Origin: Magnetococcales bacterium DC0425bin3
GTDB lineage: Bacteria; Pseudomonadota; Magnetococcia; Magnetococcales; DC0425bin3
Reading direction: 5' to 3'
Length of the DNA stretch: 64,000 nt
NCBI GenBank assembly: GCA_002753665.1
Contig: PEAP01000004.1
Coordinates: 1,516 to 65,515 of the forward strand
The first letter of the stretch is position 1, and the number at the start of each line of letters is the position of its first letter. A model generated the notes under the pieces. That model had not been told where the DNA came from, ran no database searches, and worked only from the letters and a program-made list of their open reading frames with translations. Positions 15,520 to 51,400 of this stretch are shown here, one piece after another. The position numbers and the translations under genes are program-made.

Positions 15520-15521
15520 TC

Positions 15522-23001: not shown

Positions 23002-23053
23002 GACCGCGGCGGCCTGAGGGGGGCCGTGAGGGTGGAAGAAGGGAAACGGCGTG

Positions 23054-31987: not shown

Positions 31988-32257
31988 GTCAGGTGTTCTC
32001 CTCTTTAGAGTCTGTCGCGGAATATGGCTATGGCAATGGGGACCATTCGCCCGAACCTGTCCCCCCATCCGTAAGGGGTTCCCGCGCCGGCGTCATGATA
32101 CCGGAACTGTCACTGTTCCGCCTAGGCTTTATTTTCCAATTCACCAGACGTTGAGCAAATCTGGCACGGATTTCTCAACTCCTCCCCCATGGAGCCCAGG
32201 GATGACAGGAATCCCGACGATCGGGACTGTCAATGATACAGCAGGGGGAGTGGACCG

Positions 32258-33964: not shown

Positions 33965-35884
33965 CTACCGGCTCTCCAGGGCGGTAAAACGTTCCGCCAG
34001 GGTCGCTGTCGGAGTGCCGAACAGAAACACCTCCGCCCAGACCGCGAACACCAGCACCATCCAGGCCGCCTGGGGATCCTGATCCGGCAATCCGCCGACC
34101 GTCCGGGGGTCGAAGATATCCAGTTCCCGATAACGTCCCTGATGCAGCAGCCAATCCACCGCCGGACGCCAGGTGCGCTGTATCAGCTCCCGGAAGGGCA
34201 CATGATAGCCGAAGCCCAGCTTGCGGCCGTAGAGGATGGCCTGGGGCAGGTGGGGTTCCATGGCGCGCTTGGCCAGGGCCTTGTTGCGCCGGGAGGAAAA
34301 CAGCCCGGGGGTGGTCATGGGCCGGGGCAGGGTGGCGGCGAATTCGATCAGGCGGTGGTCGAGAAACGGGGAGCGGATTTCCAGGGCATGGTGCATGCCG
34401 GGGATGTCGGCCACCAGGTTGGTGCTGTGTTGGTGGTAGAGCATCAGGTCGCTGTAGCGCACCGTGTCCAGGTAGTCCCGGGGCTGGCATTCGGTGGTGT
34501 ATTCGTCCAGCCAGCGGCCGGGATGCAGGGACAGAATCCGTTGCTGGAAACCCGGGGTGAACAGCCGCCGGGCGGCGGCCCGGAAATGTTGTTCCATGGC
34601 CAGCCCCCGGCGCTGGGCCAGGGGGGCGCGGGCCCGGTGGCCGAGCGGGGCCAGGTGAGTCCCCAGAGCAGGGACGAGATCCCGGAGGCGATCGGGCAGA
34701 CGGCGCAGCAGGGGAAACAGCAGCTGCTCCTGGCGCAGGATGCCGTTGTATCCCGCATAGCCGCCCAGCACCTCGTCGGCGCCGTTGCCCCCCAGCACCA
34801 CCTTGACCTGTTGCGCCATGGCGGCGGCCAGGGGGTCCATGTACATCATGGGAAAGAGGTTCAGCGGCTGGCCGTACTGGGCCACGATGGCCGGCAAGCG
34901 ATTCAAACGCGGCGTGTCGAAGGGAATGGCATGGTGGTGGGAGCCGATCCGTCGGGCCACCAGCTCGGCGCGGTGGAATTCGGGATCGGGGCGGTCCCCC
35001 TGGCGATAGCCGACGCAGAAGGTCTCCAGGTCGGGCCGATGGCGGATGGCATGGACGGCGATGGAGCTGGAATCCACCCCTCCGGACAGCATGACGCCCA
35101 GCGGCACATCCGCCGCCAGGCATTGGGTCACGCTGCGGCCCAACAGTTCGTCATACCGTTCCAAGGCCGCGGGCCAGCTCCAGGCCGGCTGGTGGTCGGC
35201 AAAGGTCAGGCGCCAGTAGCGCCGCAGGGTGATCGTGCCGTCCTGCCAGCGCAGGCAGGTGGCCGGGGGCAGGGCCTGGATGCCGGCGAAGAAGGTCAGG
35301 GGCGCCGGACTGGCGCCGTAGATCAACAGATTGGCCACCGCCTCGGGATTCAACTGTGGACTCAGCTCCGGCAGACGCAGCAAGGCCTGGGCCTCCGAGG
35401 CGAAGAACAGGCGGTGGCCTAGCCGGGTGTAGTGGAGCGGTTTTTCGCCAATGCGATCCCGGGCCATGAACAGCCGGCACCGGGGGGCGTCCCACAGGGC
35501 CCAGGCGAACATGCCCACCAGGTGGTCCAGGCAGTCCTCGCCGAACTCCTCGTAGAGGTGCAGGATCACCTCCACATCGGTGCGGCTGCGGAAGACATGG
35601 CCCCGCTGGACCAGTTCGCGGCGCAGTTCCGGGGCATTGTAGATTTCGCCATTGCAAACCAGCACCAAGGTCCCATCCTCGTTGGTCATGGGCTGGCGGC
35701 CATGGACGGAAAGGTCGATGATGGCCAGGCGCCGGTGGCCGAAGGCGGCCTGCTCGTCCTGCCAGAAGCCGGCATCGTCCGGTCCGCGATGGGCCAGGGC
35801 GGCCGCCAGGGCCGCAACCCATTGACCCGTGGCCGCCGTGCGGCCTTCGGGAGCGGTAGAGATCATGCCGCAGATGCCGCACAT
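33965..35884 (-). CDS. Asparagine synthase (glutamine-hydrolysing) family amidotransferase
   Basis: 639 aa. N-terminal MCGICG nucleophile, RGPDD, and the SGGVDSS PP-loop. Confidence 0.9.
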   Translation of the reverse strand: MCGICGMISTAPEGRTAATGQWVAALAAALAHRGPDDAGFWQDEQAAFGHRRLAIIDLSVHGRQPMTNEDGTLVLVCNGEIYNAPELRRELVQRGHVFRSRTDVEVILHLYEEFGEDCLDHLVGMFAWALWDAPRCRLFMARDRIGEKPLHYTRLGHRLFFASEAQALLRLPELSPQLNPEAVANLLIYGASPAPLTFFAGIQALPPATCLRWQDGTITLRRYWRLTFADHQPAWSWPAALERYDELLGRSVTQCLAADVPLGVMLSGGVDSSSIAVHAIRHRPDLETFCVGYRQGDRPDPEFHRAELVARRIGSHHHAIPFDTPRLNRLPAIVAQYGQPLNLFPMMYMDPLAAAMAQQVKVVLGGNGADEVLGGYAGYNGILRQEQLLFPLLRRLPDRLRDLVPALGTHLAPLGHRARAPLAQRRGLAMEQHFRAAARRLFTPGFQQRILSLHPGRWLDEYTTECQPRDYLDTVRYSDLMLYHQHSTNLVADIPGMHHALEIRSPFLDHRLIEFAATLPRPMTTPGLFSSRRNKALAKRAMEPHLPQAILYGRKLGFGYHVPFRELIQRTWRPAVDWLLHQGRYRELDIFDPRTVGGLPDQDPQAAWMVLVFAVWAEVFLFGTPTATLAERFTALESR

Positions 35885-36002
35885 GGGTCAGGTTCCGGCG
35901 CTGCGGATTGGGAATCCATTAAAAACATGTTGCAAAAAGCAACAAATGTCTCCGGCATCGCCCAGTGGCATCGATTGATGTCGTTCAGGGGGCAAAGACC
36001 TC

Positions 36003-37088
36003 CTAGTATCCAAACAGTTGGCCAACGTCATGGGTCTCCCTGATGATGATATCTCGAACTTCCTGGGACAGGTGGTGGCCGCTGACCGTGGATGGGGAGA
36101 TATCGTTCAACAGCCGGAGGGATCGCTCCGATAATGGCGGCAGTTGGGCAAATTGGAGCAGCTTTGCAAATTCCTGTTCGGGAGCGGAGCAGAACTCTTC
36201 GTATTTGATCAGATGAATACGATCAGCCAGGGGGTTGTATCGATCAATCAATGTCGCCACAAACCGATAGACCTCGACCCATTGCCGGGCATATCCCAAA
36301 TGGTCCTGGCCTTCCTGCCAGGCCTGGAGGATGGGTTGGCAAGCCTCGGGGGACAGGCAGATGGGCACCCGTTGTGGACCGAATTCGAAGTGGCCGGCCG
36401 ACCGGAGATAGGTTGCCACCCTGGGGTCGTTGCGGGCATAGGTAGAAAACAGTTGGTGCTGGCGTACCAGTGAGTCCACATGGCTCAGGGGGTGACGGAT
36501 GGGAATGATGAAACGGGCCAGAGGGAACTGCCGGGCAAGCCAGGGGATGCGGGTGAAATTGTAGTTGCCTTTGGAAAGATAACGTCCTCCCTGTGCCGGA
36601 CCCCGAACCAGAATGAGTTTGCGGATGTGGGCCCGGAAAAAGGCGGAAAAAGCGGATTCTTTCTGCTCCGTATCCAGCAGATGGGACTGTTTTGGGTGAT
36701 GGCAATGCGGGAAAAAGAGGTGCCAGAGAGGTTCTTCGAAGGCCTCGGGACTGTCGGTGGTGATGAAGATTCGATCCTTGTGGGGCCGTTCTGCGGGTGG
36801 GCTGGAGCGGGCGAACAGGTGGGTGAAACGGTTCCAGAACACCGGTATCGTCAAAAAGGGAAAATCCCGGTAGCGGTGGGTGACCACTGCACCGGTATCG
36901 GACAACAATTGCAGGAGGATCGTGGTTCCCGAGCGGGCCAATCCGGTCAGAAATATCGGCCGATCAATGGTCAAGGGTCGCAGTTCGTTTTCAAGCAGAC
37001 GTGTTTCGAGGTTGCCCAACCAGATCCAGAATTCTGGGCAGCAAGCGGCGGTGCGGGCCAGCATGTAATCGATTTGCCGAAGATTCAT
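36003..37088 (-). CDS. PAPS-dependent sulfotransferase family protein
   Basis: 361 aa from ATG 37088 (ATGA overlap with the upstream ORF). 5'-PSB-like FLTGLARSGTTILL and 3'-PB-like IPIRHPLSHVDS. Confidence 0.7.
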   Translation of the reverse strand: MNLRQIDYMLARTAACCPEFWIWLGNLETRLLENELRPLTIDRPIFLTGLARSGTTILLQLLSDTGAVVTHRYRDFPFLTIPVFWNRFTHLFARSSPPAERPHKDRIFITTDSPEAFEEPLWHLFFPHCHHPKQSHLLDTEQKESAFSAFFRAHIRKLILVRGPAQGGRYLSKGNYNFTRIPWLARQFPLARFIIPIRHPLSHVDSLVRQHQLFSTYARNDPRVATYLRSAGHFEFGPQRVPICLSPEACQPILQAWQEGQDHLGYARQWVEVYRFVATLIDRYNPLADRIHLIKYEEFCSAPEQEFAKLLQFAQLPPLSERSLRLLNDISPSTVSGHHLSQEVRDIIIRETHDVGQLFGY

Positions 37089-37789
37089 CGTTTGCAGGTG
37101 CGTTTGATGAGGGATCCAAGGGAGGACAGGGTGAGGAAGACAAAAAAGATCAACTCCAGGTTGCTCAGGTAAGGCCAGAGCGGATTTGTTCTGCCATCGG
37201 AAGGACGCACCACGACGCACCCTGGAGTGGATTCCGGAAACAGGTCCTTTGGATCGGGGGTGGCAAAGCCCAGCGACTGGAACAGCAGACGATGGACCAG
37301 ATGGGGGCAGAAAGCATATTTTTCCAAAGAATCCTTCAGTAGAAACGTTCCAGACGTTCCTGTCAATACCACAGGGTCGTTGTGGTGCTGTTTATGCAAC
37401 GGGACGGGGGAGGGAGAGTCATTCACCAACAGCAGGGACAAGCCTTGAGGATGGATATCCAGAAAGCCTGGGGATCCCAGGATCCAGATGTCGGCCCTGG
37501 GTATGACCAGGGACAGAAACAGCCAGAGGGGCAACAGGGCCAACACCATCCCAACCAGGTTGCGAAAGGAATAGATTGCCACCATCCGAACCAGTTGCAG
37601 ATAGTTCTGCAGGAATTGATCGCCGGTGACATCCTGTAAGAGTTTCCGGGACATCCCGACCAGCTGGGACCAGAATGGCCGCTTTGGATCCCCCATGATC
37701 AGACGCTGCAACAGCCGGAACAAGATCCCACCGGCCGCCAATCCTGCCAGCGCGACCAGTCCTTGGGCCAGTACGGTTTCATTGGTCAT
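37085..37789 (-). CDS. Hypothetical membrane protein
   Basis: 234 aa with 3-4 hydrophobic segments. No motif recognised. Confidence 0.5.
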   Translation of the reverse strand: MTNETVLAQGLVALAGLAAGGILFRLLQRLIMGDPKRPFWSQLVGMSRKLLQDVTGDQFLQNYLQLVRMVAIYSFRNLVGMVLALLPLWLFLSLVIPRADIWILGSPGFLDIHPQGLSLLLVNDSPSPVPLHKQHHNDPVVLTGTSGTFLLKDSLEKYAFCPHLVHRLLFQSLGFATPDPKDLFPESTPGCVVVRPSDGRTNPLWPYLSNLELIFFVFLTLSSLGSLIKRTCKR

Positions 37790-37858
37790 GGGGGGGAAGC
37801 CGTTGATGCCGGCGGAGCGGAATCCGTTGCTGAGTCATCGGACCCCCAATGGCAGACT

Positions 37859-38260
37859 TTATTCGGGATGAACTGGTTTCGGGGACTCAAGAGAGACATT
37901 CTGGGATGCCGAGGCGCTTTTTTTGTTTGCCAGGAATCGTTTCAACAGGCGTAACGGATAAAATAAAAGACCTGCCAGGCCCAACAGAATGACCAGGACC
38001 ACGGAGACCAAGCTTCCCATCATGCCCAATCCCGCCCCCGGTCCGATATAGGCGTGGGCATTCTCGGCCCAGAGACACAGGATCGCCAACAGACTTGGCT
38101 GAAGAGCCTGTCGCAGAATGCGGAAGATTCTGGGGTATAAGGATGCGTCTCTGGAATCAATCGATGCCGCGCCATCCGACGAGCAGAGCGGCCATGGATG
38201 GCCATTCTGCGACCGACTCTGAAGTGCCAGCGGTAACGTATTCCTCGGAAGGGTGATCAT
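37859..38260 (-). CDS. Hypothetical small membrane protein (AYIGPGAG motif)
   Basis: 133 aa. Signal-like LLAILCLWAENAHA, then YIGPGAGLGMMGSLVSVVLVILLGLAGLL. Start uncertain. Confidence 0.4.
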   Translation of the reverse strand: MITLPRNTLPLALQSRSQNGHPWPLCSSDGAASIDSRDASLYPRIFRILRQALQPSLLAILCLWAENAHAYIGPGAGLGMMGSLVSVVLVILLGLAGLLFYPLRLLKRFLANKKSASASQNVSLESPKPVHPE

Positions 38261-38269
38261 GGGGAACCG

Positions 38270-39619
38270 TTACCTGACATTGAAAGGAAAGACCACGCCA
38301 AAGACATACTTGGCAGTGTAGATGGGGTGGAGCAATGGTCCCTCCTTGTTTTTGTCCCCATGGATGAACTCCCAGAGGATGGTCCCGGAGGACAGGTCGA
38401 TTTCCTGGACCAGTCCCTGATGGGTCAAAGCCAGCAGCAGCCGGTGGCCATTGGGGTGGATGTCCAGATGTCCTGCCGTTTCGGTGCCTGGTTTGTTGAT
38501 CCCTTTGCCGCCAGGCAATGGGTAGAGGAGCTGGGACAGGCCGCTGGCCAATTCGATGGCCAAGATTTGTGTGTCCCCATTAAGGTGTACGCCCCCCCGG
38601 TTGTCAAGAACCAGAATGGCAGAGCCATTGAGCCGCGGGCTGTGCTGGCGGATGGTGGTTCCGGTCGAGATCCATTTGAAACGGCGGGTTCCACCATCCA
38701 GAATTCCGACCATGTTGAGTTGCCGCAAGGAGACCAGCATGTCTCCCTCTTTCAGGAGGGGATGATCCGCAGCGAGCGCGGCATCAACGAGGCGAACATC
38801 ATTCAGGTGGGTGGGATCGCATTGATGGAATCCAGAGTCTTCATCATAGCCCCGGAACAGACCTGGCAGACCGGAATCGATCAAGGCCTTGAGAATGGAA
38901 ATCCGCTCCATGACAGTGCCATTGGGATCCAGAATGGCAATCTCGTCCGAGTTGAAAAGTCCCTGGTGACAAATCAAGTCGAAGCGGGTCGTACCGATGC
39001 GCCAGGGGGATTGCTCCAGACTGAGCGAAGGGGAATAAATACGGCCATCGACAGCCACCGAGAACCAGTGGTGATAGAAGCCTTCTTTTTTCCATATTAA
39101 ATTGGAATCCTTATCGAACCTGGCCATTCCAATGGCATATGGAAAAGTGTTCTCACCCTGATAGCTGACCAGCAAGTCACCGTTCTCGAACAGGTGCAGA
39201 CCTACGGGATAGATGGTCGAAAGCAGGGGAGCCTGGACCCGTTCCAGGTCGGCCCAGAGATCGGGATCAAAGGTCCAGACATGTTTGACAGAGCCTTTTC
39301 TGTCCATGAGCCAAGCAAGACAGCCCTGTTTGGGACAGTGGGATGTCAGTTGACCAGGACCGCCACTCAGCAGGAGCAGTTCGTCTCCTGCCAGAGGAGA
39401 TGAAGTATGGACAGTGGGTTCATCGATGCCCACAGGACGATTCTGATCGTTGACAAAGAATTTAGACAGATAAACCTGCGAAAGAGCATGTAGACTGGTC
39501 CACGCTTCCAAAAGAACCCCGTAAGGGAATATTTTGAGTTTCGAAACGGCGACTCCATAGGAGAATCCAAGCAGAACAAGCGAGAACAAAAAAAATAGCC
39601 GAGATATTCGATTGAGCAT
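38270..39619 (-). CDS. Arylsulfotransferase (ASST)-like beta-propeller protein with N-terminal anchor
   Basis: 449 aa. N-terminal TM LFFLFSLVLLGFSYGV. CDPTHLNDV resembles the ASST D..H.N motif. Repetitive beta-strand pattern. Confidence 0.5.
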   Translation of the reverse strand: MLNRISRLFFLFSLVLLGFSYGVAVSKLKIFPYGVLLEAWTSLHALSQVYLSKFFVNDQNRPVGIDEPTVHTSSPLAGDELLLLSGGPGQLTSHCPKQGCLAWLMDRKGSVKHVWTFDPDLWADLERVQAPLLSTIYPVGLHLFENGDLLVSYQGENTFPYAIGMARFDKDSNLIWKKEGFYHHWFSVAVDGRIYSPSLSLEQSPWRIGTTRFDLICHQGLFNSDEIAILDPNGTVMERISILKALIDSGLPGLFRGYDEDSGFHQCDPTHLNDVRLVDAALAADHPLLKEGDMLVSLRQLNMVGILDGGTRRFKWISTGTTIRQHSPRLNGSAILVLDNRGGVHLNGDTQILAIELASGLSQLLYPLPGGKGINKPGTETAGHLDIHPNGHRLLLALTHQGLVQEIDLSSGTILWEFIHGDKNKEGPLLHPIYTAKYVFGVVFPFNVR

Positions 39620-39983
39620 TTCTTGATTTCCGGAAAAGCCTGTTTCAACAAAATCCGATTTTCAATTGTGGATTGAAGGAAAACGGCAACAGCGAAGCGA
39701 GTGGGAGAACTGTTTATTTTTTAGTTCGAGTAGATTTATGTCTATTTGAGGTAAAGATTATACTGAATGTTCAGAAAAAATCCAGGAAAAAACGTTGGCC
39801 AATAATCAGGTTCCCGCTTCCGGGATCGAACCAGACATTCTTCGAATATAAACATAAAAATCAATCTGTTGAACGTATCCGACCTTGAGAGGAGGTCAGG
39901 CCCATCCTGGGGGCGCCGTGATCCATGGACTGCTGCTGCAGGAAAGATCAAAATGCCGTAAACATCAGCAGAGTGAGATCCAA

Positions 39984-41486
39984 GTGTATTGCCACCGAAT
40001 CATCCTGGTCAACCCCCCTCCGGATTACGATCCCCACCTGTTCACCCGATTCCGGCCCGGCCAGGGCACCCAGTGGCCCATCGGACCGTTGCTGTTGGGC
40101 ACCTGCCTGAAGCGAGCCGGTTTCGAAGTGCGTATCATCGATGGCCAGGTGGTCGATTGCGCCGCCGAACTGCAGCGGGAGTTGGCCCTGGACCGGCTGC
40201 TGTGGGTGGGATTCTCCGTCATGAGTTCCCAGTTCCAGCAGGCCCGGGACCTCTCGCGGCTGGTCCGTCGGCTGGCACCGGGACTGCCCGTGGTCTGGGG
40301 GGGGTTCCATCCTACCCTGTTTCCGGAGTCCTGCCTGGAGAACGATTTCATCGATCATGTCGTCCGCGGGGAGGCGGATCGGGCCATCGTGCAATTGGGA
40401 CGTGCCCTGCAGGATGGCAGTCCACTGGAGCAGGTAGGCAACCTGGCCTTCCGCCATCGGGAGGGGGTCATGCTGAATCCGTTGCTGCCACTGTCGGACA
40501 TGGCCGACATGCCGCGCCCCGACGAAACCCTCCTGGACGACTACCGGGTGTATTTTTCCCGGCAGGACGTGCTGGGCCGACCGGCCCGGGGGACGATTCT
40601 GCTGACCGGCATGGGCTGCAACCTCAAATGCTCCTTCTGCCGCAATGCCATCCTCAGGGAAAAACATCGGCGCCTGGAGGCCGAGGCCATCTACAGCGAG
40701 ATGGTCCGATTGCACGCGGCCCATGGTGTGGATGAATTCGGCCTGGTGGATGAAAACTTCTTTGCCGACCGGCCCCGATTGTGGCGCTTTCTGGAGCTGC
40801 TGGAGCAGAGCCCCGTGCGGTTTCGCTGGTCCACCAACCTGCGGGCCAATTATGTACGGGACGGCTATCTGGACCGGGATTTCCTGGCGCGGATCGCTGC
40901 CAGCGGCGGCTACTATTTTTCCGTAGGTGCCGAAAGCGGGGACCCGGCCATCCTGAAGAAGATCCGCAAGGGCATCCGGGTGGAACACCTGCGCAACCTG
41001 GCCCGGTGGACCCGGGGTCTGGACATCATCATCACCTACAGCTTCATGGCGGCCATTCCCGGCGAGTCCTGCGACATGACGTTGCGCACCTTCCGGCTGA
41101 TCCGAGAGTTGCAGGCGATCGACCCGCAGTCCAGGATCATTGGTCCCCAGGTCTTTCGTCCCTACCCGGGCAGTCCCCTGTTCCAGGAGGCGGTAACCAT
41201 GGGATTGCAGGTACCCCGGGATTGGAACAACGCCGAGGATTTCTTTCGCACCCTGTTCCAGTTCCGCCAGATCTCCCCCCAGGCCATCCCCTGGCATCCG
41301 GAACCGGAACGGTTCAAGTATATGCTGCTCTCGTTCTCCATTCTGCTCTTCAGGATGAACACCCCGCTGCGCCGTCTGCTGCTGGGTCCCCTGCACCTGC
41401 TTTCGACCCTGCGCCTCAACAGCGGCTTCTACCGCTGGTTCTTCGAAAAGTGGCTGCTGGACGCCATCAATGCGCGCCTGACATGA
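39984..41486 (+). CDS. B12-binding-domain radical SAM enzyme
   Basis: N-terminal IILVNPPP...GPLLLGTCLKRAGFEV is a B12-binding fold. CNLKCSFCRN is a CxxxCxxC cluster. Start uncertain: GTG 39984 preferred, alternatives GTG 39918 and TTG 39885. Confidence 0.8.
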   Translation: MYCHRIILVNPPPDYDPHLFTRFRPGQGTQWPIGPLLLGTCLKRAGFEVRIIDGQVVDCAAELQRELALDRLLWVGFSVMSSQFQQARDLSRLVRRLAPGLPVVWGGFHPTLFPESCLENDFIDHVVRGEADRAIVQLGRALQDGSPLEQVGNLAFRHREGVMLNPLLPLSDMADMPRPDETLLDDYRVYFSRQDVLGRPARGTILLTGMGCNLKCSFCRNAILREKHRRLEAEAIYSEMVRLHAAHGVDEFGLVDENFFADRPRLWRFLELLEQSPVRFRWSTNLRANYVRDGYLDRDFLARIAASGGYYFSVGAESGDPAILKKIRKGIRVEHLRNLARWTRGLDIIITYSFMAAIPGESCDMTLRTFRLIRELQAIDPQSRIIGPQVFRPYPGSPLFQEAVTMGLQVPRDWNNAEDFFRTLFQFRQISPQAIPWHPEPERFKYMLLSFSILLFRMNTPLRRLLLGPLHLLSTLRLNSGFYRWFFEKWLLDAINARLT

Positions 41487-41501
41487 CCACCTGTTCGAAC
41501 C

Positions 41502-42488
41502 TCAACAGTCGGAAAGTGGTCGGGAGGGCAGGGGAGGCGCTTGGCCCAGCAGGCGCCGGAGGCGGTTGAGAGTGTAGGGATTGCCCGGGCAGGCCCGGCA
41601 ACTGGAGTAGCGGTGCTTGTTCCAATGCAGGCCCCGCCGGAAGGCCCGCACTGGCGGGCCGTTCAGCAGATCCGCCGGATCGCGGATGTCCTCGATATGG
41701 CGCAGGTACAGATCCCGGCCGACGTTTTCGCAGCAGGGCACCTGATAGCCGTCGCTGTTGAAATACAGGCCGAAATACAGGGCATCGCACACCCGGCCCG
41801 GATGGGGGGCTGGGTTGATCTCCATGCCCTGCCAGTAGCTGTTCATGCGGTTCATGAGGATGTCCTGCTCCGGGATGCCATACTCGCGGGCAAAGGCCCG
41901 AGCTCGGGCCTGCAGTTGGGTGTCCTCGGGAAAGTCACTGCCGTAAACCTCCCGGGCCATGTTCTTTTCGCCGTTCTGGAATAGGATCACCCGCACCCGG
42001 CAGGTCCCGGCCAGCAGGATCCGCAGATTGTCCAGGGCCGTCTCCAGCCGGCCCCCCCGACGATAGCGGGCATAGAGGTCGGGTGACAGCACATCCAGGG
42101 CACAGGCCACGGTCAGGTTGGGGGCCGCCGCCAGTTGGCGGGCGGTGCGGGCCGAGAAGTTCAGGTTGGAGGACAGGGCGAACCGGCAGTCCGGCAGGCC
42201 GGCCATGTAGTCGCAGATTTTCGGATTGAGGGCGGCCTCGCCGAAATTGTGCAGGATGTATTCCTCCGCCAGGCCGCGGGTCAGTTCGATGATGCGGTGA
42301 AACCAGGCGTCGGGGATGAACCGGTTCTGCCGATCCAGCACCCGGTGGGCTTGACCCGCCGGGCAGAAGCGGCAGGAAAGGTTGCAGATCGAGCTGGTTT
42401 CGATCACCACGTTGCAGCGGGACCGCAGGGGAACGTACCCGGTATTGACCAGGGCCGAAGCGAACGTGAGAATGCGGGACAGGTCCAT
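41502..42488 (-). CDS. Radical SAM enzyme with SPASM/twitch-like C-terminus
   Basis: 328 aa. ETSSICNLSCRFCPAG. C-terminal Cys cluster (VPCCENVG...SSCRACPGNPY). Confidence 0.8.
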   Translation of the reverse strand: MDLSRILTFASALVNTGYVPLRSRCNVVIETSSICNLSCRFCPAGQAHRVLDRQNRFIPDAWFHRIIELTRGLAEEYILHNFGEAALNPKICDYMAGLPDCRFALSSNLNFSARTARQLAAAPNLTVACALDVLSPDLYARYRRGGRLETALDNLRILLAGTCRVRVILFQNGEKNMAREVYGSDFPEDTQLQARARAFAREYGIPEQDILMNRMNSYWQGMEINPAPHPGRVCDALYFGLYFNSDGYQVPCCENVGRDLYLRHIEDIRDPADLLNGPPVRAFRRGLHWNKHRYSSCRACPGNPYTLNRLRRLLGQAPPLPSRPLSDC

Positions 42489-42497
42489 GGCGACGTT

Positions 42498-44345
42498 TCA
42501 CGCTTCCGGGGCCGACCGGCCTTGGCCCTGCAGGGCATGCAGGCGGGCGAACCGTCCTCCCTCCCGGGCGAGCAGTTCATCCCAGGTGCCCGATTCCACG
42601 ATCCGGCCCTCTTCGAGAACATGGATGGCATCCGCCTGGCGCACCGCGCCCAGACGGTGGGTGATGATCAGCACCGTCAACCGCCCGCGGCAGGCGTGAA
42701 TCGCTTCCAGGACCTGTCGTTCCGCATCCGCGTCCAGGGCGCTGGTGGCCTCGTCGAGGATCAGCAGCGACGGCTGGCTGGCCAGGGCCCGGGCCAGGCT
42801 GATGCGCTGGCGCTGGCCGCCGGAGAGCAGGCTGCCGCGCTCGCCGACGGGTGTCTCGAAGCCCCGGGGCTGTCCCTGGATGAAGTCCAGGGCCCGGGCC
42901 TGCCGGGCGGCGGCCTCGAGGATGGTCGAGGTCGGATTTGGGACGCCCCACAGGATGTTGTGGGCGATCGTCCCGTGGAACAGGAACGCCTCCTGAATCA
43001 CATAGCCCACCACCCGCCGCCAACTGCGCATGGGCAGGGTCCGCAGGTCACGACCATTGATGTCGATGCGACCCGCCTGGAGGGGTATCAGGCCCATGAG
43101 GCAATCGGCCAGGGTGGATTTGCCGGCGCCGGAGGGACCCACGATCCCCACCAACGCCCCGGGGGGAATCGACAGGGTCAGGTCCTGGAGAATGGGAGTG
43201 GCGCCATGGGCGCAGTGGAGGCCCCGCAGCTCCACACCCACTGGCCGGCCGGCCCAGGTCGGCGGCAGGGGGCTGTCGTCCAGGACTTCTGCCGCCCGCC
43301 GAGCCTGTTCCAGGGGGGCGGTGACATGGCCGATGGCGGGCAGGGCGAACATCAGGTTCTGGTGGTGTTGTTGCAGGGTGGCCAGGCGGGGATAGAGGCG
43401 CACGAACAGGGCCAGCACCACGAACAGCGCGCCGGCATCCAGCCCCAGCCGGTCCACACCCAGGGCCAGGAAGGCGCACAGGGCGCTGATGAGGGTGAAC
43501 TCGAACACCGCCCGCTGCACCGTGGGCAGAAAGGCCAGGCGGCGTTGCACCCGGCGCAGGGTCTCTACCACGTCCCGGAACTGGGCCAGGGCCGATTCCT
43601 CGGTGGCGGAGGACTTGATGAACCGGGCTCCGCCCAGCAGCTCCTGGGCGACGCCCTGCAGGCGGCCGGTGTGATGGCCGTAGGCCCGGCCGCCGGCATA
43701 GCCCAACCGCATGGTGCCTCGCAGGGCCAGGAACAGCAACCCGCTGATCAGCAGCAACCCGGTGGTCACCTGCCAGGAGACCAGAACGGCCAGCAGGGCA
43801 TAGACCAGCCCGGTCACCAGGGATGCGGCCAGTTGGTTGAGGCTGTAGAAGGCCGCTTCCAGGCGGCTGGTTTCGCCCACCAGGGCGTTGCTCAGGTTGC
43901 CCGGCTTCTGGTCAAGAAAGAACGGCCAACCGGCCCGGATGCAGGCGGCGAACAGGGCCTCCCGCCACAGGGCCACATAGCGGGTCAGCAGGGCGGAGGC
44001 CAGATAGCCCTGCCCCAGGAACACGGCATTCTGAACAAAGAAGACCCCGATGATGATGGCCAGAATGGTGCCGGGGGTCGGCGGCAGGGTCAGGGCGGCA
44101 AACAGCTCCCGCAGGGCGGTTCCCACCCGTCCGGAGGCGTCGGGGTCGCCGATGCCCATGGCGTTGAGCAGGGGCAGCAGCAGCACGAACCCCACCCCCT
44201 CCATGAGACCGTTGAGGGCCATCACCAACAGCAGCCCCCAGGCCCGCAGGCCGAACCTGGCGCGGATATCCCGCAGCAAGAGACCGAGTTGGGACAGGAT
44301 CGCCGGCTCCCCGGCCGCGTCGGAGCGGGGAGGGGGCTGGGTCAA
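42498..44345 (-). CDS. ABC exporter, fused permease-ATPase (MsbA-like half transporter)
   Basis: About 615 aa. Six TM segments, Walker A GPSGAGKST, signature LSGGQRQR, Walker B LLILDEATSALD. Proposed TTG start at 44345 overlaps the upstream stop (TTGA). The ORF-track N-terminal 90 aa are off-gene. Confidence 0.85.
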   Translation of the reverse strand: MTQPPPRSDAAGEPAILSQLGLLLRDIRARFGLRAWGLLLVMALNGLMEGVGFVLLLPLLNAMGIGDPDASGRVGTALRELFAALTLPPTPGTILAIIIGVFFVQNAVFLGQGYLASALLTRYVALWREALFAACIRAGWPFFLDQKPGNLSNALVGETSRLEAAFYSLNQLAASLVTGLVYALLAVLVSWQVTTGLLLISGLLFLALRGTMRLGYAGGRAYGHHTGRLQGVAQELLGGARFIKSSATEESALAQFRDVVETLRRVQRRLAFLPTVQRAVFEFTLISALCAFLALGVDRLGLDAGALFVVLALFVRLYPRLATLQQHHQNLMFALPAIGHVTAPLEQARRAAEVLDDSPLPPTWAGRPVGVELRGLHCAHGATPILQDLTLSIPPGALVGIVGPSGAGKSTLADCLMGLIPLQAGRIDINGRDLRTLPMRSWRRVVGYVIQEAFLFHGTIAHNILWGVPNPTSTILEAAARQARALDFIQGQPRGFETPVGERGSLLSGGQRQRISLARALASQPSLLILDEATSALDADAERQVLEAIHACRGRLTVLIITHRLGAVRQADAIHVLEEGRIVESGTWDELLAREGGRFARLHALQGQGRSAPEA

Positions 44346-45355
44346 GCGCCGACCCCGGCGGCCTGGCGGCGCGCCTCGACTTCCCGCTTGTGGCTCTCCC
44401 GCCAGGCGATCAGTTCGGCCAAGCCCTCCCGCAATTGGGTGCGGGCGGTGAAGCCCAGATCCGCCATCGCCCGGCGGGGGTCGCCGATGCGGTTCTTCAC
44501 GAACGAGGGTTGGCCGGGTTCGAATTGAATCGAGTGGGGCGAACCGGTCATCTCCAGCACCAGCTCGGCCACGGCGCGGATGGAGGTGCGCACCCCGGTG
44601 CAGACGTTGTAACACCGGTCGGTGGCCGTGGCCCGCAGGGCATGGACGTTGGCGCGGGCGCAGTCGATGACCGAGACGAAGTCGAAGGCCTGGCTGCCGT
44701 CGCCATGGACGATGGGCGGCAGGCCCTGGTCCAGGCGGTCCAGCATCTTCATGATCACCGCGATGTAGGCGCCCCGATAGTCCTGGCGTGGGCCGTAGAC
44801 GTTCATGTAGCGCAGGCCCACATAATTAAAATGCCGGTCGGTGTTCTTGTAGCGATGGTAGAGGGCGCGGCACATGTGCTCCCCGGCGATCTTGGAGGCA
44901 CCGTAGAAGGTTTCGTTGGCGTAGGGGTGGTCCTCGTCCATGGGCTCGCGCACCGCGTCGCCGTAGACCGAGGCCGACGAGGAAAACACCAGCCGCCGGA
45001 TCCGGCTGTCGATCATGGCCTCCAGCACGTTGAAGGTGCCGGCGATGTTCACCTCGAAGGCCGAGCGGGGATAATCGTAACAGTGGAGCAGCCAGAGGGC
45101 GGCGAAGTGGAACACGCCGTCGATGCCTGTCATGGCCCGGCGCAGCAGATCCCGGTGCAGGATGTCCCCGCCCAGCGGAAAAATGTTGACCCGCGGATCG
45201 GCCAGGGCCTGGGCCAGGTTTTCCTCCCGGCCCCGGGTGAAGTTGTCGTAGATGCGGATTTCGGCCACATCCTCCTGGAGCAACTGGTCCACGGTGTGGG
45301 AACCGATCAGACCGGCGCCGCCGATGAGCAACAGTCGTTTGCCTGCAAGGTCCAT
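44342..45355 (-). CDS. NAD-dependent epimerase/dehydratase (SDR)
   Basis: 337 aa. IGGAGLIGSH and YGASK motifs. Confidence 0.85.
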   Translation of the reverse strand: MDLAGKRLLLIGGAGLIGSHTVDQLLQEDVAEIRIYDNFTRGREENLAQALADPRVNIFPLGGDILHRDLLRRAMTGIDGVFHFAALWLLHCYDYPRSAFEVNIAGTFNVLEAMIDSRIRRLVFSSSASVYGDAVREPMDEDHPYANETFYGASKIAGEHMCRALYHRYKNTDRHFNYVGLRYMNVYGPRQDYRGAYIAVIMKMLDRLDQGLPPIVHGDGSQAFDFVSVIDCARANVHALRATATDRCYNVCTGVRTSIRAVAELVLEMTGSPHSIQFEPGQPSFVKNRIGDPRRAMADLGFTARTQLREGLAELIAWRESHKREVEARRQAAGVGA

Positions 45356-45539
45356 GGGGGATTCACTCGTTGGTGGAACGGGGCGATTGGAGGATATGAC
45401 AGATCCGTGGCTCTGGCGAGGGGTGGATCGGGCGCTGGCGGTGGACAGTCCGCCCCGGCAGCCCTAGACTGGCCGACTTCCGGGATTGGGTGGGCCTCTA
45501 CTGCGGGGGTGTCGTTTGTTCGCAACGTTTCTGCCACGC

Positions 45540-46634
45540 ATGGCCCGGGCGGTGGATCTGCTGCGCCGCCGTCCCCGGGGCTGGGACAGCCTGATGATCA
45601 ACACGGCCCTGGCGCTGGCCCGGGTGCCTGGCCCCCTGCGCCTGCCGGTCCATGTGACCATCGAACCGGTCAACACCTGCAATGCCCGTTGTCCCATCTG
45701 CGAGACCGGCAACGCCAGCCTGGAGCGGCGCCGGGGTCTGCTGGAGGTCGAGGCCTACCGGGCGTTCATCGATCACATCGCCCCCCATGCCAACAGCCTG
45801 ATGTTCTACTTCATGGGCGAGCCGTTCCTGCACCCCAGGGCCTGCGACATGATCCGGCATGCCCGGGATCGGGGCCTGTTCGTCGAGACCTGCACCAACG
45901 GCGACCTGGTGGACCCGCTGGCGGTGCTGGAGTCCGATGTCAACCGCATCAGTTTCCAGATCGGGGGCATGACCCAGGCCAGCCATGGGGTCTACCGGGT
46001 CGGCAGCCGGCTGGAGCGGGTCATGGGCAACCTGGAGGCATTGCTGGAGGCGCGCCGGCGCCGGCCGGACTCCCAGGTTCAGGTGGAGGTCGGGTTGATC
46101 GTCATGGCCCAGAACGAGGCGGAGATTCCCCGTTTCCAGGCCTGGGCCAAGGCAATAGGCGTGGACCGCGCCCACCTGGTGCAGCCGGCGGTGCGCACCC
46201 TGGAGGAGGCCCGGGTCTATCTGCCCCGGGATCCCGGCCACTGGCCCTACGACCCCCAGGCCCTGCAGCGGGGACAATTGCGGCCCCGGGTCGTGCCCCA
46301 CAACCGCTGTACCTGGCTGTGGAACTCGGTGGTGGTCAACTGGAACGGCGACTTGGTCCCCTGCTGCCGGGATCCCCACGGACGGCATGTGATGGGCAAC
46401 GTCTTCGCGCAGCCGTTGGCGGAGATCTGGAACGGCCCGCGCCTGACCGCCTTCCGCCGGCAGGTGGCGACGGCCCAGGCCGGGGTGGACATCTGCCGGC
46501 TGTGCGCCGGGTTCGGGGTGCCGCATCTCCAATCCATTCACCGTGGAAGTCGCAACGCGACTTCCATTGGTGGAGGGTGGAGGGAGGCTGCCCCCATTCC
46601 TCAAAGTCAGCAGCAGGCCCCGCCGACGCCCTGA
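45540..46634 (+). CDS. Radical SAM / SPASM-domain enzyme
   Basis: 364 aa from ATG 45540. VNTCNARCPICETG, plus SPASM NGDLVPCC...CRLCAG. The last 31 codons run through repeat copy 4. Confidence 0.8.
   Translation: MARAVDLLRRRPRGWDSLMINTALALARVPGPLRLPVHVTIEPVNTCNARCPICETGNASLERRRGLLEVEAYRAFIDHIAPHANSLMFYFMGEPFLHPRACDMIRHARDRGLFVETCTNGDLVDPLAVLESDVNRISFQIGGMTQASHGVYRVGSRLERVMGNLEALLEARRRRPDSQVQVEVGLIVMAQNEAEIPRFQAWAKAIGVDRAHLVQPAVRTLEEARVYLPRDPGHWPYDPQALQRGQLRPRVVPHNRCTWLWNSVVVNWNGDLVPCCRDPHGRHVMGNVFAQPLAEIWNGPRLTAFRRQVATAQAGVDICRLCAGFGVPHLQSIHRGSRNATSIGGGWREAAPIPQSQQQAPPTP
46539..46606 (+). repeat. Two-hairpin repeat, copy 4
   Basis: CACCGTGGAAGTCGC-AAC-GCGACTTCCATTGG, then TGGAGGGTGGAGGG-AGGC-TGCCCCCATTCCTCAAAG. 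Confidence 0.9.
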
Positions 46635-47668
46635 TCGCCCCCCAGCCGGCTGGCCGACGGGGCGCAGTCGAAGGGACCGAAATGCACCGACCGGTCCCCC
46701 TGCACCTGGAAATGCGCCTGGTAGCGGGTTTCCTGCAGCATGGCGGCGGTGTTGCCGCACACCAGCATGGGCTTGCCGGTGAAGAAGCGGTGATGGTCGT
46801 CCAGGTCGAAGTAATGCGGCCAATCCGGGATGGTGCCCCGGTAGACGGCCACCTGGCCGTAATCCTCGCAAATGTCCTCCAGGCTTTCGAGCTTGAAGGC
46901 CCGAACGGTCACGGAATGGAAATCCACCATGCCGATGCGCGCCGCCACTTCCGGATTGTCGAGGGCGATGGGACGCGAGGCGGTGACCCGGTGATCCAGG
47001 CAGCCGAGGTCGCGCAGCAGGCGGCGGAAATCCTCCCGGTACAGCGCCCCGCCCAGGCATTCGCCCAGCAGCACCGGATCGTCCTGCAAGTCCGCCGGAA
47101 CCCGGCGTCCGGCGAACACGTCGGCAAAATACAGCTCGCCCCCCGATTTCAGCACCCGGAAAATCTCTCCGAACACCGCCCGCTTGTCCGGGGCCAAGTT
47201 GAGTACGCAGTTGGAGATCACCACGTCCACCGAGCCGTCGGCGATGCCCAGGGCGGCCAGATCCTCCATATAGCCCTGGTGAAAGACCACGTTGGCCTCC
47301 CGGAAGCCGAAGCGGGCCATGTGGCCGTCGAGATGCCGACGGGCGACTGCCAGCTGCTCTTCGGTCATGTCCACGCCGATCACCCGTCCCCGGGGTCCCA
47401 CCAGTTGGGCCGCCAGATAGACATCCCGACCCGTGCCGCAGCCGAGGTCCAGCACCGTGCAGCCGTCCAGCAGGGGCGGCAGGGGCGAGCCGCAGCCGTA
47501 GAACCGGTTCAATACCTCCCGATCGATGTTGGCCAGGGCGGCGCGGATGCGGGGGGACAGCCCGGTGTCCGTCGAACAGCAGGCGCTGGTCTTCAGATCG
47601 GCGGAGCCCTTGAGAATGGTTCCGTAATAGTCCTTGATGCTGACATGGACAGGTCTTGCTGCGGGCAT
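46607..47668 (-). CDS. arsM: Arsenite S-adenosylmethionine methyltransferase-like protein
   Basis: 353 aa from ATG 47668. LDLGCGTGRD SAM motif. Four Cys contexts typical of ArsM (TSACCS, FYGCGSP, ISNCVLNL, GECLGGA). Confidence 0.8.
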   Translation of the reverse strand: MPAARPVHVSIKDYYGTILKGSADLKTSACCSTDTGLSPRIRAALANIDREVLNRFYGCGSPLPPLLDGCTVLDLGCGTGRDVYLAAQLVGPRGRVIGVDMTEEQLAVARRHLDGHMARFGFREANVVFHQGYMEDLAALGIADGSVDVVISNCVLNLAPDKRAVFGEIFRVLKSGGELYFADVFAGRRVPADLQDDPVLLGECLGGALYREDFRRLLRDLGCLDHRVTASRPIALDNPEVAARIGMVDFHSVTVRAFKLESLEDICEDYGQVAVYRGTIPDWPHYFDLDDHHRFFTGKPMLVCGNTAAMLQETRYQAHFQVQGDRSVHFGPFDCAPSASRLGGDQGVGGACC

Positions 47669-47756: not shown

Positions 47757-47808
47757 AAAAAAGAGAGTGGCCGTGGCCGGCCACTCTCCACCAGACGTCC
47801 CTGTCGGG

Positions 47809-48564
47809 TCAAGGTTGCGAAGCGGACGATTCTTCGGGCAGCGTCGCGCCGTGGGCGATCAGCAGATCGGCCGTGGTCTGGTCACCCCGGGTCACCGCCA
47901 CCTGCAGGGGGTTGGCACCTTTCAGGTTGACCCGGTTGACCTCCAGTCCCAGGGTCAGCAACCGCGGCAGCAGGGCGGTCTGGCCATGGCGCACGGCGTA
48001 GAACAGGGCATCCTCACCGCGATGATCCACAGCCTGCGGATCGGCCCCGGCCGCCAACAGCCGCTCCAGCACCTCGGCATGGCCGTACTGCGCGGCGCGC
48101 ATCAGGGCGGTGCGGCCCTTGTCGGTGCGGGCGTTGGGATCGGCTCCGGCCGTCAGCAGCCGGGTCACCAGCTCGGGATTATCCCATTGGGCGGCCAGGA
48201 TCAGGGCACTCTGGCCCCACTGATTGCGGTGATTCACCGCCACGCCCGCCGCCAGCAGCCGGTCCACCACCGGCAGATGGCCCTCCTGCACCGCCACCAT
48301 CAGGGGCGTGAGACCGTCGGCGCCGGGCATGTCCAATCCGCCGACGGGGATGGCCCGCTCCAGGGCGGCCAGGTCTCCGGTCATGGCGGCTTCAGCCACC
48401 GGGCTGGAGACCACTGGCTGGAAGGAAGTCTCCAGGGTTTTTCCGCCCCAGGGGCGGACAATGAGCAACAAGGCCACCAACAGGGCGGCCAGCAAGGCGA
48501 ACGACCATTCCAGCAGGCTGCGCAACTGCCCGGCCGGCTGGGGATGGCTGTGGGTGATATCCAT
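47809..48564 (-). CDS. Membrane-anchored ankyrin-repeat protein (paralogue 2)
   Basis: 251 aa from ATG 48564 (SD AGGGAG). TM helix FALLAALLVALLLIV. ANK repeats closely similar to paralogue 1 (HRNQWGQSALILAAQWDNPELV vs QRNAWGQTPLILAAQWDQLEVM). Confidence 0.85.
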   Translation of the reverse strand: MDITHSHPQPAGQLRSLLEWSFALLAALLVALLLIVRPWGGKTLETSFQPVVSSPVAEAAMTGDLAALERAIPVGGLDMPGADGLTPLMVAVQEGHLPVVDRLLAAGVAVNHRNQWGQSALILAAQWDNPELVTRLLTAGADPNARTDKGRTALMRAAQYGHAEVLERLLAAGADPQAVDHRGEDALFYAVRHGQTALLPRLLTLGLEVNRVNLKGANPLQVAVTRGDQTTADLLIAHGATLPEESSASQP

Positions 48565-50445: not shown

Positions 50446-50551
50446 GAATTCCAGAGGCTCGCCAGGTGTGGGCCGGGAAATCCGGCTCCTGTGAAACCCA
50501 AAGATTTCAATTCCCGTGCCAGAGGAGCCTGTGCTGCCTCAACGGTTTCTT

Positions 50552-51232
50552 TCAGAAGGGAATCGGCAGCACCGGCCGGAAATCGGCCACCGAGACGAAG
50601 CGCTGGGAAAAGACCGGCGGCAGGGCAGAGCTGGGATGGGCGATGTGCAGCAGGTGACCGATCCCCCAGGCGGCGGCGGTGACCAGGATCGGTTCGGAGT
50701 CGTCGGCCAGCAGGGAGTCGCCCGGATCGAACCCCAGCAGTCGGCGGGCCGCCTCCCAGAAGCGACGATCCTCCTTGGCATGCCCCACCTGGTGACTGGT
50801 CAGGATGGCATCCAGGTGACGGCCGATGGGGGTTCGCTCCAGCTTCAGCGCCAGGGAACGGGGATGGGCGTTGGTCACCAGACAGGCCCGCCGTCCGGAC
50901 CGCTTGACCAGATCCATAAACTCCAGGGCGTGGGGCCGGGGGCTGATCAGGTGGGCCACCTCCCGCTTGAGGGCCGGGATGTCCAGCGCCAGGGTCCGGG
51001 ACCAGTGGTCCAGATCGTACCAGGCCAGGGTGCCCTCCACCCGGTGGTAGGCCGCCAGCACCTCCTGCCGGGCATGATGTTGGCTCAGGCCATGGACCTT
51101 GGCATAGGCCTCGGGCACCGTGTGCAGAAAAAAATGATCGTCGAAATGGCGATCCAGCAGGGTGCCGTCCATGTCCAGCAGGACGGTGCGGATCCCGGGC
51201 CATTCCAGAAGGGGAGGGGGCATGGTGGTCAC
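50552..51232 (-). CDS. HAD-superfamily hydrolase
   Basis: 226 aa. LLDMDGTLLD (DxDxT), VTNAHP, and a C-terminal DD motif (LLADDSEP). Confidence 0.8.
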   Translation of the reverse strand: MTTMPPPLLEWPGIRTVLLDMDGTLLDRHFDDHFFLHTVPEAYAKVHGLSQHHARQEVLAAYHRVEGTLAWYDLDHWSRTLALDIPALKREVAHLISPRPHALEFMDLVKRSGRRACLVTNAHPRSLALKLERTPIGRHLDAILTSHQVGHAKEDRRFWEAARRLLGFDPGDSLLADDSEPILVTAAAWGIGHLLHIAHPSSALPPVFSQRFVSVADFRPVLPIPF

Positions 51233-51400
51233 GGCGGCATCCCGGCGCTGACGGTCTCAAGATGGCCCATAGAATGCAGAGGGTTTGCGGCAAGAAGCAA
51301 GCAACCCCTGTTCCGGCCTTCCCTCCTGGCCGGAATTCGGATGCATCGCCAACAGGCTGCAACCAGGCAGCGCCTGGCAGGAAGGGAGGCCTTCTTCCCC

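Follow-up and report, generated by a model that had tools for sequence, protein, structure and literature searches.

Gene content and layering of the region

The region described here spans positions 33965–47668 of a 64,000-nucleotide stretch of the Magnetococcales bacterium DC0425bin3 genome (assembly GCA_002753665.1, contig PEAP01000004.1; the whole stretch is hereafter called the window) and holds eleven genes. These encode an AsnB-type amidotransferase, a sulfotransferase of the type that uses 3'-phosphoadenosine-5'-phosphosulfate (PAPS), two membrane proteins, an arylsulfate sulfotransferase (ASST)-like beta-propeller, a B12-binding radical S-adenosylmethionine (SAM) enzyme (B12-rSAM), an operon consisting of a short-chain dehydrogenase/reductase (SDR), an ATP-binding cassette (ABC) exporter and a radical SAM enzyme (rSAM1), a further radical SAM enzyme (rSAM2) and an ArsM-family methyltransferase. 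Pfam and NCBIfam scans confirmed all eleven genes at the positions given in an initial annotation made from the sequence alone, or within start-codon choice of them. The public gene calls (metagenome-assembled genome GCA_015233965.1, contig JADFWZ010000003.1) set the same boundaries and likewise show the 4-nt overlap of SDR and ABC and the 9-nt gap between ABC and rSAM1 that had been reported for the operon junctions, and the open reading frame (ORF) at 37859–38260 is the sole listed gene missing from them. Domain scans also upheld the earlier statement that the region contains neither polyketide synthase or nonribosomal peptide synthetase genes nor a glycosyltransferase. No conserved small ORF or plausible precursor ORF was found in 33965–47668, and no Rfam family matched between 33000 and 49000. 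That the gene set could not be matched to a described pathway likewise still holds, and searches of the literature on PF14269, the Pfam family of the ASST-like protein, and on radical SAM/SPASM enzymes in O-antigen or lipopolysaccharide contexts turned up no account of either of the two conserved units treated below.

Co-conservation of the genes was assessed from three anchors, namely the ASST-like protein, rSAM2 and rSAM1. The eleven genes had initially been regarded as a single 14-kb biosynthetic island, a view that the neighbourhood analysis does not sustain, since it separates the region into three layers. Co-conservation was found for rSAM2, SDR, AsnB and the ABC exporter, and more rarely for rSAM1 and B12-rSAM, in glycan loci of many phyla, but not for the sulfotransferase block or arsM: the former never occurred with genes of the radical SAM set in approximately 165 comparison loci (numbered with the prefix L below), and the latter was absent from the surroundings of all 80 rSAM2 homologues. 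The region is therefore probably a mosaic, in which a trimmed radical SAM glycan-tailoring module is interrupted by an inserted sulfation cassette and adjoined by a bystander arsM gene. As shown by co-occurrence, the first layer (AsnB, B12-rSAM, the SDR–ABC–rSAM1 operon and rSAM2) is a trimmed form of a widespread, biochemically uncharacterised type of surface-glycan locus. The second layer, the block at 36003–39619, is an independently inherited cassette inserted between the AsnB and B12-rSAM genes, as is evident from its separate synteny, its foreign base composition and the hairpin between the sulfotransferase and AsnB genes. It is unlikely that three radical SAM genes fell among six adjacent genes by chance, because sets of several radical SAM genes recur in related loci.

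Radical SAM glycan module

The conserved module centres on the rSAM2 protein (364 aa; 45540–46634, plus strand), which Pfam assigns to the radical SAM/SPASM enzymes and whose gene is divergent from the SDR operon. Its family is large and well conserved (50–60% identity), and a genome scan located it in 461 species-level genomes. Eighty rSAM2 loci were fetched and searched with all window proteins, 44 of them with full 10-kb flanks, from hosts including Nitrospira, Alpha-, Beta- and Gammaproteobacteria, Acidobacteriota, Omnitrophota and Elusimicrobiota, among others. Within the 44 full loci, an AsnB homologue was present within 10 kb of rSAM2 in 35, an SDR homologue (48–71% identity, 4–9 kb from rSAM2, across phyla) in 24 and an ABC exporter homologue (35–45% identity) in 17, with all three together in 11. 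The identity of the SDR across these loci exceeds that of rSAM2 itself. A distant B12-rSAM was found in three of the full loci, and such proteins share 25–29% identity with that of the window in the few rSAM2 or rSAM1 loci that contain one. Neither ArsM nor any gene of the sulfation cassette occurred in any of the 80 loci. Clustering of the ORFs showed the typical neighbours of rSAM2, in Nitrospira and Kiloniella for example, to be DegT aminotransferases, hexapeptide acetyltransferases, GT4 glycosyltransferases, class-I methyltransferases, a formyltransferase and a GFO/IDH/MocA–hexapeptide fusion; these are surface-glycan loci of the O-antigen, exopolysaccharide or glycoprotein type. Enzymes of 200–640 aa make up the recurrent neighbours of rSAM1 and rSAM2 homologues. 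A protein of approximately 505 aa with no Pfam family, whose gene directly follows that of rSAM2 in 46 of the loci L011–L090, is the most constant partner of rSAM2 after AsnB and is absent from the window.

The rSAM1 protein (328 aa; 41502–42488, minus strand), a short radical SAM enzyme by Pfam with the motif CNLSCRFC and a twitch/SPASM-like C-terminus, is encoded by the final gene of the SDR–ABC–rSAM1 operon. Its family is rare: a word-indexed search matched nothing but rSAM1 itself, and an exhaustive HMMER search yielded approximately ten cluster representatives with E < 1e-30 among 1.84 billion. Three relatives could be placed (33–40% identity by tblastn), and all of them lie in glycan loci. 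In the first (L010), the rSAM1 relative is accompanied by GT4, Wzx, methyltransferases, AsnB and an rSAM2 homologue of 42% identity, while the second (L171/L172) contains NeuB/NeuC/NeuA, GT2, AsnB and a B12-rSAM. In the third (L173), which belongs to a complete genome, that of Salidesulfovibrio onnuriiensis, an ABC exporter 38% identical to that of the window comes directly after the rSAM1 homologue, together with an rSAM2 homologue (43%), two AsnB genes, GT4 genes and a protein of approximately 492 aa. Since they share loci elsewhere, AsnB, rSAM1, the ABC exporter, the SDR and rSAM2, with B12-rSAM as a looser associate, constitute a recurring functional set.

At the outer edge of this module lies the AsnB gene (639 aa; 33965–35884, minus strand), whose glutamine-dependent product combines the Pfam domains GATase_7 and Asn_synthase, begins with MCGICG and has kept the glutaminase nucleophile Cys2. 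It passes the asparagine-synthase model TIGR01536 (389 bits, cut-off 267), and the enzyme would probably amidate a sugar carboxylate. A function as lasso-peptide cyclase was considered and rejected: the score against NF033535 is 224 where the cut-off is 525, the glutaminase domain is intact, and neither a B protein nor a precursor is present. The B12-rSAM (500 aa; 39984–41486, plus strand; Pfam B12-binding and Radical_SAM) reached no NCBIfam cut-off, with scores of 118 of 481 for BchE and 100 of 578 for HpnJ. Its nearest PDB sequences are the aminoglycoside diol-dehydratase AprD4 and TokK, and it probably methylates or rearranges a sugar.

The SDR (337 aa; 44342–45355, minus strand) is an extended, epimerase-type enzyme (Pfam Epimerase) with the motifs GGAGLIGSH, SSSASVYG and YGASK, a pattern typical of 4-epimerases and not the TDE pattern of 4,6-dehydratases. 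Its top PDB sequences are 6wjb and 6wj9, which we take to be PelX, and WbpP, WbgU and MoeE5 are also among the nearest; the protein is probably an enzyme resembling the 4-epimerases of nucleoside diphosphate-linked hexoses or N-acetylhexosamines. The fused exporter (615 aa; 42498–44345, minus strand; Pfam ABC_membrane and ABC_tran) is of the MsbA/PglK/HepA-like kind, with the HepA family as its top NCBIfam model (296 bits against a cut-off of 725), and has no C39 peptidase domain according to Pfam. The solved sequences nearest to rSAM2 are BtrN and BlsE, and its AlphaFold2 model (predicted local distance difference test score, pLDDT, 81) matched BlsE, SuiB, DesII, anSME and BtrN about equally, a result that is compatible with a sugar substrate without being diagnostic of one. 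A search of plasmids with rSAM2 returned only distant radical SAM proteins of less than 30% identity, and the PDB sequence search with rSAM1 was uninformative. Tailoring of hopanoids or other lipids was also considered as the role of these enzymes and rejected, as the scores were 100 of 578 for HpnJ, 63 of 650 for HpnR, 25 of 225 for HpnH and 56 of 368 for HpnA; no squalene-hopene cyclase turned up in Pfam scans of those window genes that were scanned.

Judged by family membership, the epimerase-type SDR and a radical SAM/SPASM enzyme would tailor a nucleotide-activated or lipid-linked sugar, the AsnB-type enzyme would amidate a carboxylate, and the MsbA/PglK-like ABC protein would flip or export the product. 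As the usual glycosyltransferases, aminotransferase and acetyltransferase are missing here, the module would have to act on a glycan assembled elsewhere, or else make a small sugar-derived product. Within the 64 kb, glycosyltransferases are confined to the glycogen genes, a single GT2 and a separate pel-like locus, none of them closer than 13 kb, those nearest to the region being the GT2 (16918–17874) and PelF (13954–15519).

Flippases of the PglK type are known, as is the WbpP/WbpS pair that makes the amide of N-acetylgalactosaminuronic acid in Pseudomonas aeruginosa O6. The region resembles such O-antigen and protein-glycosylation loci in having a WbpP-like SDR of the epimerase type, together with an amidotransferase of the AsnB type and a fused ABC exporter, but differs from O-antigen and exopolysaccharide loci in having no glycosyltransferase, sugar dehydrogenase, polymerase or ligase. 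The window SDR is, moreover, related to solved epimerases only at approximately E = 1e-32 to 1e-37, and the region has three radical SAM enzymes, which are not known from any characterised O-antigen pathway. The closest solved relatives of rSAM2 (BtrN, BlsE and DesII) and of B12-rSAM (AprD4) all act on sugars or aminocyclitols. These enzymes are, however, less than 20% identical to the window proteins and belong to antibiotic pathways with small-molecule substrates, whereas the families represented in the window occur in envelope-glycan loci.

Putative sulfation cassette

The cassette is encoded on the minus strand and begins with the ASST-like gene (38270–39619), whose 449-aa product belongs to Arylsulfotran_2 (PF14269) and has one N-terminal membrane helix. 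The protein has 168 homologues, of at most 49% identity outside the source organism, and some members of the family also match Pfam PF05935. It is followed by the gene of a small membrane protein (at most 133 aa; 37859–38260), whose core, shared by the homologous cassettes, consists of AY[IV]GPGAG, a transmembrane helix, the motif YP[LI]RL and a basic tail. According to tblastn, this ORF lies beside ASST-like genes in dozens of loci, and an ORF family of approximately 82 aa was found in 33 loci. Conservation does not extend to the first approximately 45 residues of the 133-aa ORF, and the true start may therefore lie further in. The third gene (37085–37789) encodes a 234-aa membrane protein of approximately three transmembrane segments, an ORF with no Pfam or NCBIfam family. 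In L003 and L004 its homologues hold the equivalent place in the cassette and are 24–31% identical by tblastn and 28–33% by alignment, and a truncated version of 130 aa is found in L002. The 234-aa gene overlaps by 4 nt the last gene of the cassette (36003–37088), which encodes the 361-aa PAPS-type sulfotransferase (Sulfotransfer_3, PF13469, E = 8.5e-18). This protein has no transmembrane segment and contains the sequence GLARSGTT, read as the phosphosulfate-binding loop. Homologues of 42–51% identity lie beside ASST-like genes in L002–L005, L091–L094, L107–L109, L115 and L116, and more distant ones (25–46%) in many loci from marine metagenomes; the PDB sequence search with this protein was uninformative.

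The cassette stands out sharply in base composition. The GC content falls from approximately 68% to 52–58% exactly over 35900–39600 and returns to approximately 65% at 40000, and the GC content at third codon positions (GC3) is 0.61–0.68 in the three cassette genes that were scored (0.61 for the ASST-like gene and 0.64 for Sulfotransfer_3), compared to 0.79–0.88 in every flanking gene, including AsnB (0.85) and the three radical SAM genes. The abrupt GC step at approximately 35900 coincides with a weak terminator-like hairpin with a T-run (35928–35944, minus strand), located after the sulfotransferase gene and ahead of AsnB. On its right side, the low-GC block is bounded by an AT-rich divergent intergenic region (39620–39983, 39–43% GC), which separates the cassette from the B12-rSAM gene and has promoter-like sites for the cassette. 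This gap, the only one for which small ORFs were listed (20-aa minimum), contains no credible small ORF and no Rfam match. No flanking repeats and no integrase or other mobile-element genes were found at the cassette edges, where only near matches of 12–14 nt occur. These are the near-identical 12-nt direct repeats TCAGGTTCCGGC and TCAGGTTCCCGC at 35888–35899 and 39806–39817, one at each edge, and a 14-nt repeat pair at 36012 and 39789. Such repeats are probably due to chance, though they could be insertion scars.

The four cassette genes were found together in three long-contig neighbourhoods: in the same order in a Planctomycetaceae metagenome-assembled genome (MAG), in a second Magnetococcales MAG with the ASST-like gene at the opposite end, and in an ENA contig with the same order and the membrane ORF shortened to 130 aa. 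The small ORF measures 89–114 aa in these three, and apart from the cassette their surroundings are unrelated and contain no radical SAM, AsnB or ABC genes. A scan with the family alignment added 80 more ASST-like metagenome loci, most of which have a Sulfotransfer_3 gene, and often the small ORF, within 1–2 kb. The pairing of Sulfotransfer_3 with the ASST-like protein persists in distant members at 23–30% identity. The radical SAM, AsnB and ABC genes of the window were absent from all of the approximately 85 ASST-like loci, where epimerase-type SDRs, GT2, GT4 and a 2-oxoglutarate (2OG) oxygenase are the recurrent extra neighbours of the cassette.

A possible two-step sulfation relay

The AlphaFold2 model of the ASST-like protein (pLDDT 86.7) comprises two helices, the first being the N-terminal membrane helix, and a beta-propeller. 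Its top fold matches in the PDB are both Cpz4, a sulfotransferase from the caprazamycin pathway of Streptomyces (9kf6 and 9kf4; E = 8e-15, template modelling score 0.56), with the next match at 2e-10. According to the account of Tang et al. 2013 in PMC4257720, Cpz4 is independent of PAPS and takes its sulfate from phenolic esters, which the PAPS-dependent Cpz8 makes on pyrones of a type III polyketide synthase. Cpz4 sulfates a sugar hydroxyl (PMC13426309), an acceptor that fits the glycan neighbourhoods of the cassette. Across 20 sequences of the propeller family, 58 positive charges were counted on the N-side of the helix and 34 on the other side, which suggests an N-in orientation with the propeller facing the periplasm. 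The invariant residues of the family include H183, H184, H271-x-N273, H326 and R107, and the histidine positions together with the H-x-N motif are reminiscent of the AssT active site.

By analogy, the cassette may operate as a two-step sulfation relay like that of Cpz8 and Cpz4. The cytoplasmic, PAPS-dependent Sulfotransfer_3 protein would load sulfate onto a carrier, which would cross the membrane aided by the two small membrane proteins, and the membrane-anchored, probably periplasmic propeller would then transfer the sulfate to an envelope carbohydrate or lipid. PAPS is not available outside the cytoplasm, where this last transfer would take place. Alongside the observed pairing, fold and composition, the carrier, topology and acceptor of such a relay are putative. 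Neither the small nor the 234-aa membrane protein has conserved cysteines; a Dsb-like role comparable to that of DsbL/DsbI was rejected for both, since the conserved cysteine pairs are missing.

The cassette shares with the caprazamycin sulfation system (Cpz6/Cpz8/Cpz4) the presence of a PAPS-type sulfotransferase and a propeller of the PAPS-independent, ASST-like type in one gene set. It differs in having no type III polyketide synthase (Cpz6), in the membrane anchor of its propeller and the two accompanying small membrane proteins, and in its hosts and context, which are Gram-negative environmental bacteria and not an antibiotic cluster. The likeness of the propeller to Cpz4 is, furthermore, a structural one between a predicted model and solved structures, with none seen by sequence profile. 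With the AssT–DsbL/DsbI system of Escherichia coli, the cassette has in common a secreted or anchored beta-propeller encoded with membrane partners. The ASST-like protein belongs to PF14269, however, while AssT belongs to PF05935, the model of the ASST-like protein has no N-terminal beta-sandwich, the unit includes a PAPS-type sulfotransferase, and the partners are not Dsb-like.

The arsM gene

The arsM gene (46607–47668, minus strand) encodes an ArsM-family arsenite S-adenosylmethionine methyltransferase that matches solved ArsM proteins end to end (PDB 5evj, E = 1e-109 over residues 7–345; 4fr0, E = 2e-89), though its score against NF008823 (182 bits) is below the cut-off of 263 and no further ars genes were seen in its vicinity. 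The genes arsM and rSAM2 are convergent, and their 3' ends overlap by 28 nt. Just upstream of arsM, between an ankyrin gene and arsM, lies a strong terminator-like hairpin of 12 pairs with a T7 tail (47762–47789, minus strand). The gene is treated as a bystander that is not part of the glycan module.

Alternative explanations

An alternative to a mosaic is that all eleven genes make a single sulfated, amidated and C-methylated glycan or glycolipid that is exported by the ABC protein, the cassette having been recruited to this pathway. In favour of this, the genes are closely spaced and their junctions short, and the cassette elsewhere adjoins GT2, PMT_2 and SDR genes, so that its target is plausibly a glycan and both layers concern carbohydrates. 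Against this stand the mutual absences in the comparison loci, where cassette genes occur in none of the 80 rSAM2 loci and the radical SAM, AsnB and ABC genes in none of the approximately 85 ASST-like loci, as well as the sharp difference in base composition, the terminator-like site between the cassette and AsnB and the identification of arsM, by sequence, as an arsenic methyltransferase. A single pathway is therefore considered unlikely. Lower still is the probability we assign to a remnant or chance neighbourhood, in which the radical SAM, SDR and ABC genes would be a decayed fragment of a glycan locus, without glycosyltransferases and with no defined product at present. In favour of such decay are the missing DegT, hexapeptide acetyltransferase, GT4 and 505-aa partner and the foreign DNA inserted in the middle of the set, but the reading frames are all intact and of full length with host-like codon usage (GC3 0.79–0.88), the operon junctions are tight, and the catalytic motifs are preserved: the SDR retains YxxxK and AsnB retains Cys2, while CxxxCxxC is present in the sequence of rSAM1 and in the alignment of the rSAM2 family.

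The initial annotation had named two candidate products, of which a glycan or lipid modification agrees with the glycan-locus neighbourhoods of the rSAM1 and rSAM2 families. The other, a cryptic ribosomally synthesised and post-translationally modified peptide (RiPP), would involve a peptide encoded elsewhere, modified by the B12-rSAM and the SPASM radical SAM enzymes and exported by the ABC protein. Many peptide maturases do belong to the SPASM and B12-rSAM families, weak NCBIfam matches to maturase models were obtained, and SuiB and anSME are among the fold matches of rSAM2. Every NCBIfam RiPP model nevertheless scored far below its cut-off, no precursor-like conserved small ORF was found, with small ORFs listed for the gap at 39620–39983, the radical SAM enzymes have no RiPP recognition element (RRE)/PqqD match in Pfam, the cluster has no protease and the exporter no C39 domain, and sugar enzymes and glycosyltransferases are the company in which members of the rSAM1 and rSAM2 families occur in approximately 90 loci. 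This proposal thus found no support and is highly improbable. An organoarsenical pathway built on arsM and a radical SAM enzyme, in the manner of ArsM/ArsS (arsenosugar) or ArsM/ArsL (arsinothricin), is equally improbable. Known organoarsenical pathways do include pairs of ArsM and a radical SAM enzyme, arsM adjoins rSAM2 and overlaps it, and the B12-rSAM has a faint ArsL match (E = 1.8e-9). Against these points, the scores are below the cut-offs for the arsenosugar ArsM model (105 vs 400), the arsinothricin ArsM model (160 vs 500) and the ArsL model (37 vs 450), ArsM is missing from the rSAM2 loci, and arsM and rSAM2 are convergent and therefore not co-transcribed.

The mosaic of glycan module, inserted cassette and bystander arsM remains the preferred explanation, though several observations weigh against it or against parts of it. 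The enzymatic roles assigned to the layers are all predictions. In the glycan module, AsnB is approximately 30% identical to most of the cluster AsnBs and passes a model for the housekeeping asparagine synthase, and the fold matches of rSAM2 include the peptide-modifying SuiB and anSME, so that the fold does not fix the substrate class. The usual companions of rSAM2, namely glycosyltransferases, DegT, an acetyltransferase and the 505-aa protein, are missing from the window, and the module could be a decaying remnant. The place of the cassette within the glycan module may reflect functional recruitment and not accident. As for the relay, the sequence profile of the ASST-like family retrieves neither Cpz4 nor E. 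coli AssT from the PDB, the topology of the propeller depends on a weak charge count, and no type III polyketide synthase or other carrier-making gene is present in the cassette or among its recurrent neighbours, which is the chief weakness of the proposal. Finally, a group of close ASST-like homologues (L095–L106, 39–43% identity) shows no Sulfotransfer_3 in the available sequence; in several of these loci the downstream genes instead include one or two for 2OG-Fe(II) oxygenases, and the group may represent a variant cassette with different chemistry.

Implications

Bacterial sulfation of surface polysaccharides and lipids and the roles of radical SAM enzymes in envelope-glycan loci are both poorly known, and the region joins a conserved unit of each kind: the pair of PAPS-sulfotransferase and Cpz4-like propeller with its membrane partners, and the set of radical SAM/SPASM enzymes and SDR, with AsnB and the ABC exporter as further members. 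Tentatively, and with less confidence than in the mosaic itself, the cassette can be pictured as a widespread, undescribed machine that sulfates envelope glycans or lipids outside the cytoplasm by way of a membrane-crossing carrier, and rSAM2 with the SDR, in at least 461 species, as a separate and likewise undescribed radical sugar-tailoring step. If true, the first of these would extend two-step sulfation from a single antibiotic pathway, that of caprazamycin, to cell-surface chemistry in Planctomycetes, Magnetococcales, Gammaproteobacteria and numerous marine bacteria. The layers are not categorically new, as the first varies surface-glycan loci by unusual radical SAM tailoring, the second varies two-step sulfation and the third is an ordinary ArsM. 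Their value lies instead in two delimited, widely distributed and tractable units, both open to genetics and enzymology; the set of radical SAM/SPASM enzymes and SDR occurs in hundreds of species, including the cultivable Kiloniella litopenaei P1-1, Bradyrhizobium spp. such as strains CSA112 and McL0615, and Salidesulfovibrio onnuriiensis. For annotation, the lesson is that the region is not a secondary-metabolite cluster and that RiPP mining is unwarranted.

Wider genomic context

Elsewhere in the window, a pel-like exopolysaccharide locus extends over 3832–16907. It comprises a GH114 PelA-like gene (3832–4734, minus strand), TPR protein genes (4864–7569 and 11698–12852), a lipoprotein gene (9700–10287), a GAF PelD-like gene (10161–11705), a PelX-like epimerase SDR gene (12977–13921, minus strand), PelF (13954–15519; NF038011, 444 bits, cut-off 100) and PelG (15522–16907), and is followed by the lone GT2 gene on the minus strand. 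The genes around the region concern carbohydrate storage and cyclic di-GMP signalling (19041–26259 and 50516–52534), with GlgA at 19041–20513, a GH57 enzyme at 20510–22009, a PAS-GGDEF-EAL protein at 23086–26259 (minus strand) and a 672-aa PilZ-domain protein at 50516–52534. Two ankyrin-repeat proteins flank the wider region (28127–28960 and 47809–48564, both on the minus strand), the second being encoded directly upstream of arsM. The glycogen branching enzyme GlgB (29495–32068, minus strand) carries a C-terminal ROS/MucR DNA-binding domain at residues 782–854, which is also present in the public gene call and makes the protein an unusual enzyme–regulator fusion.

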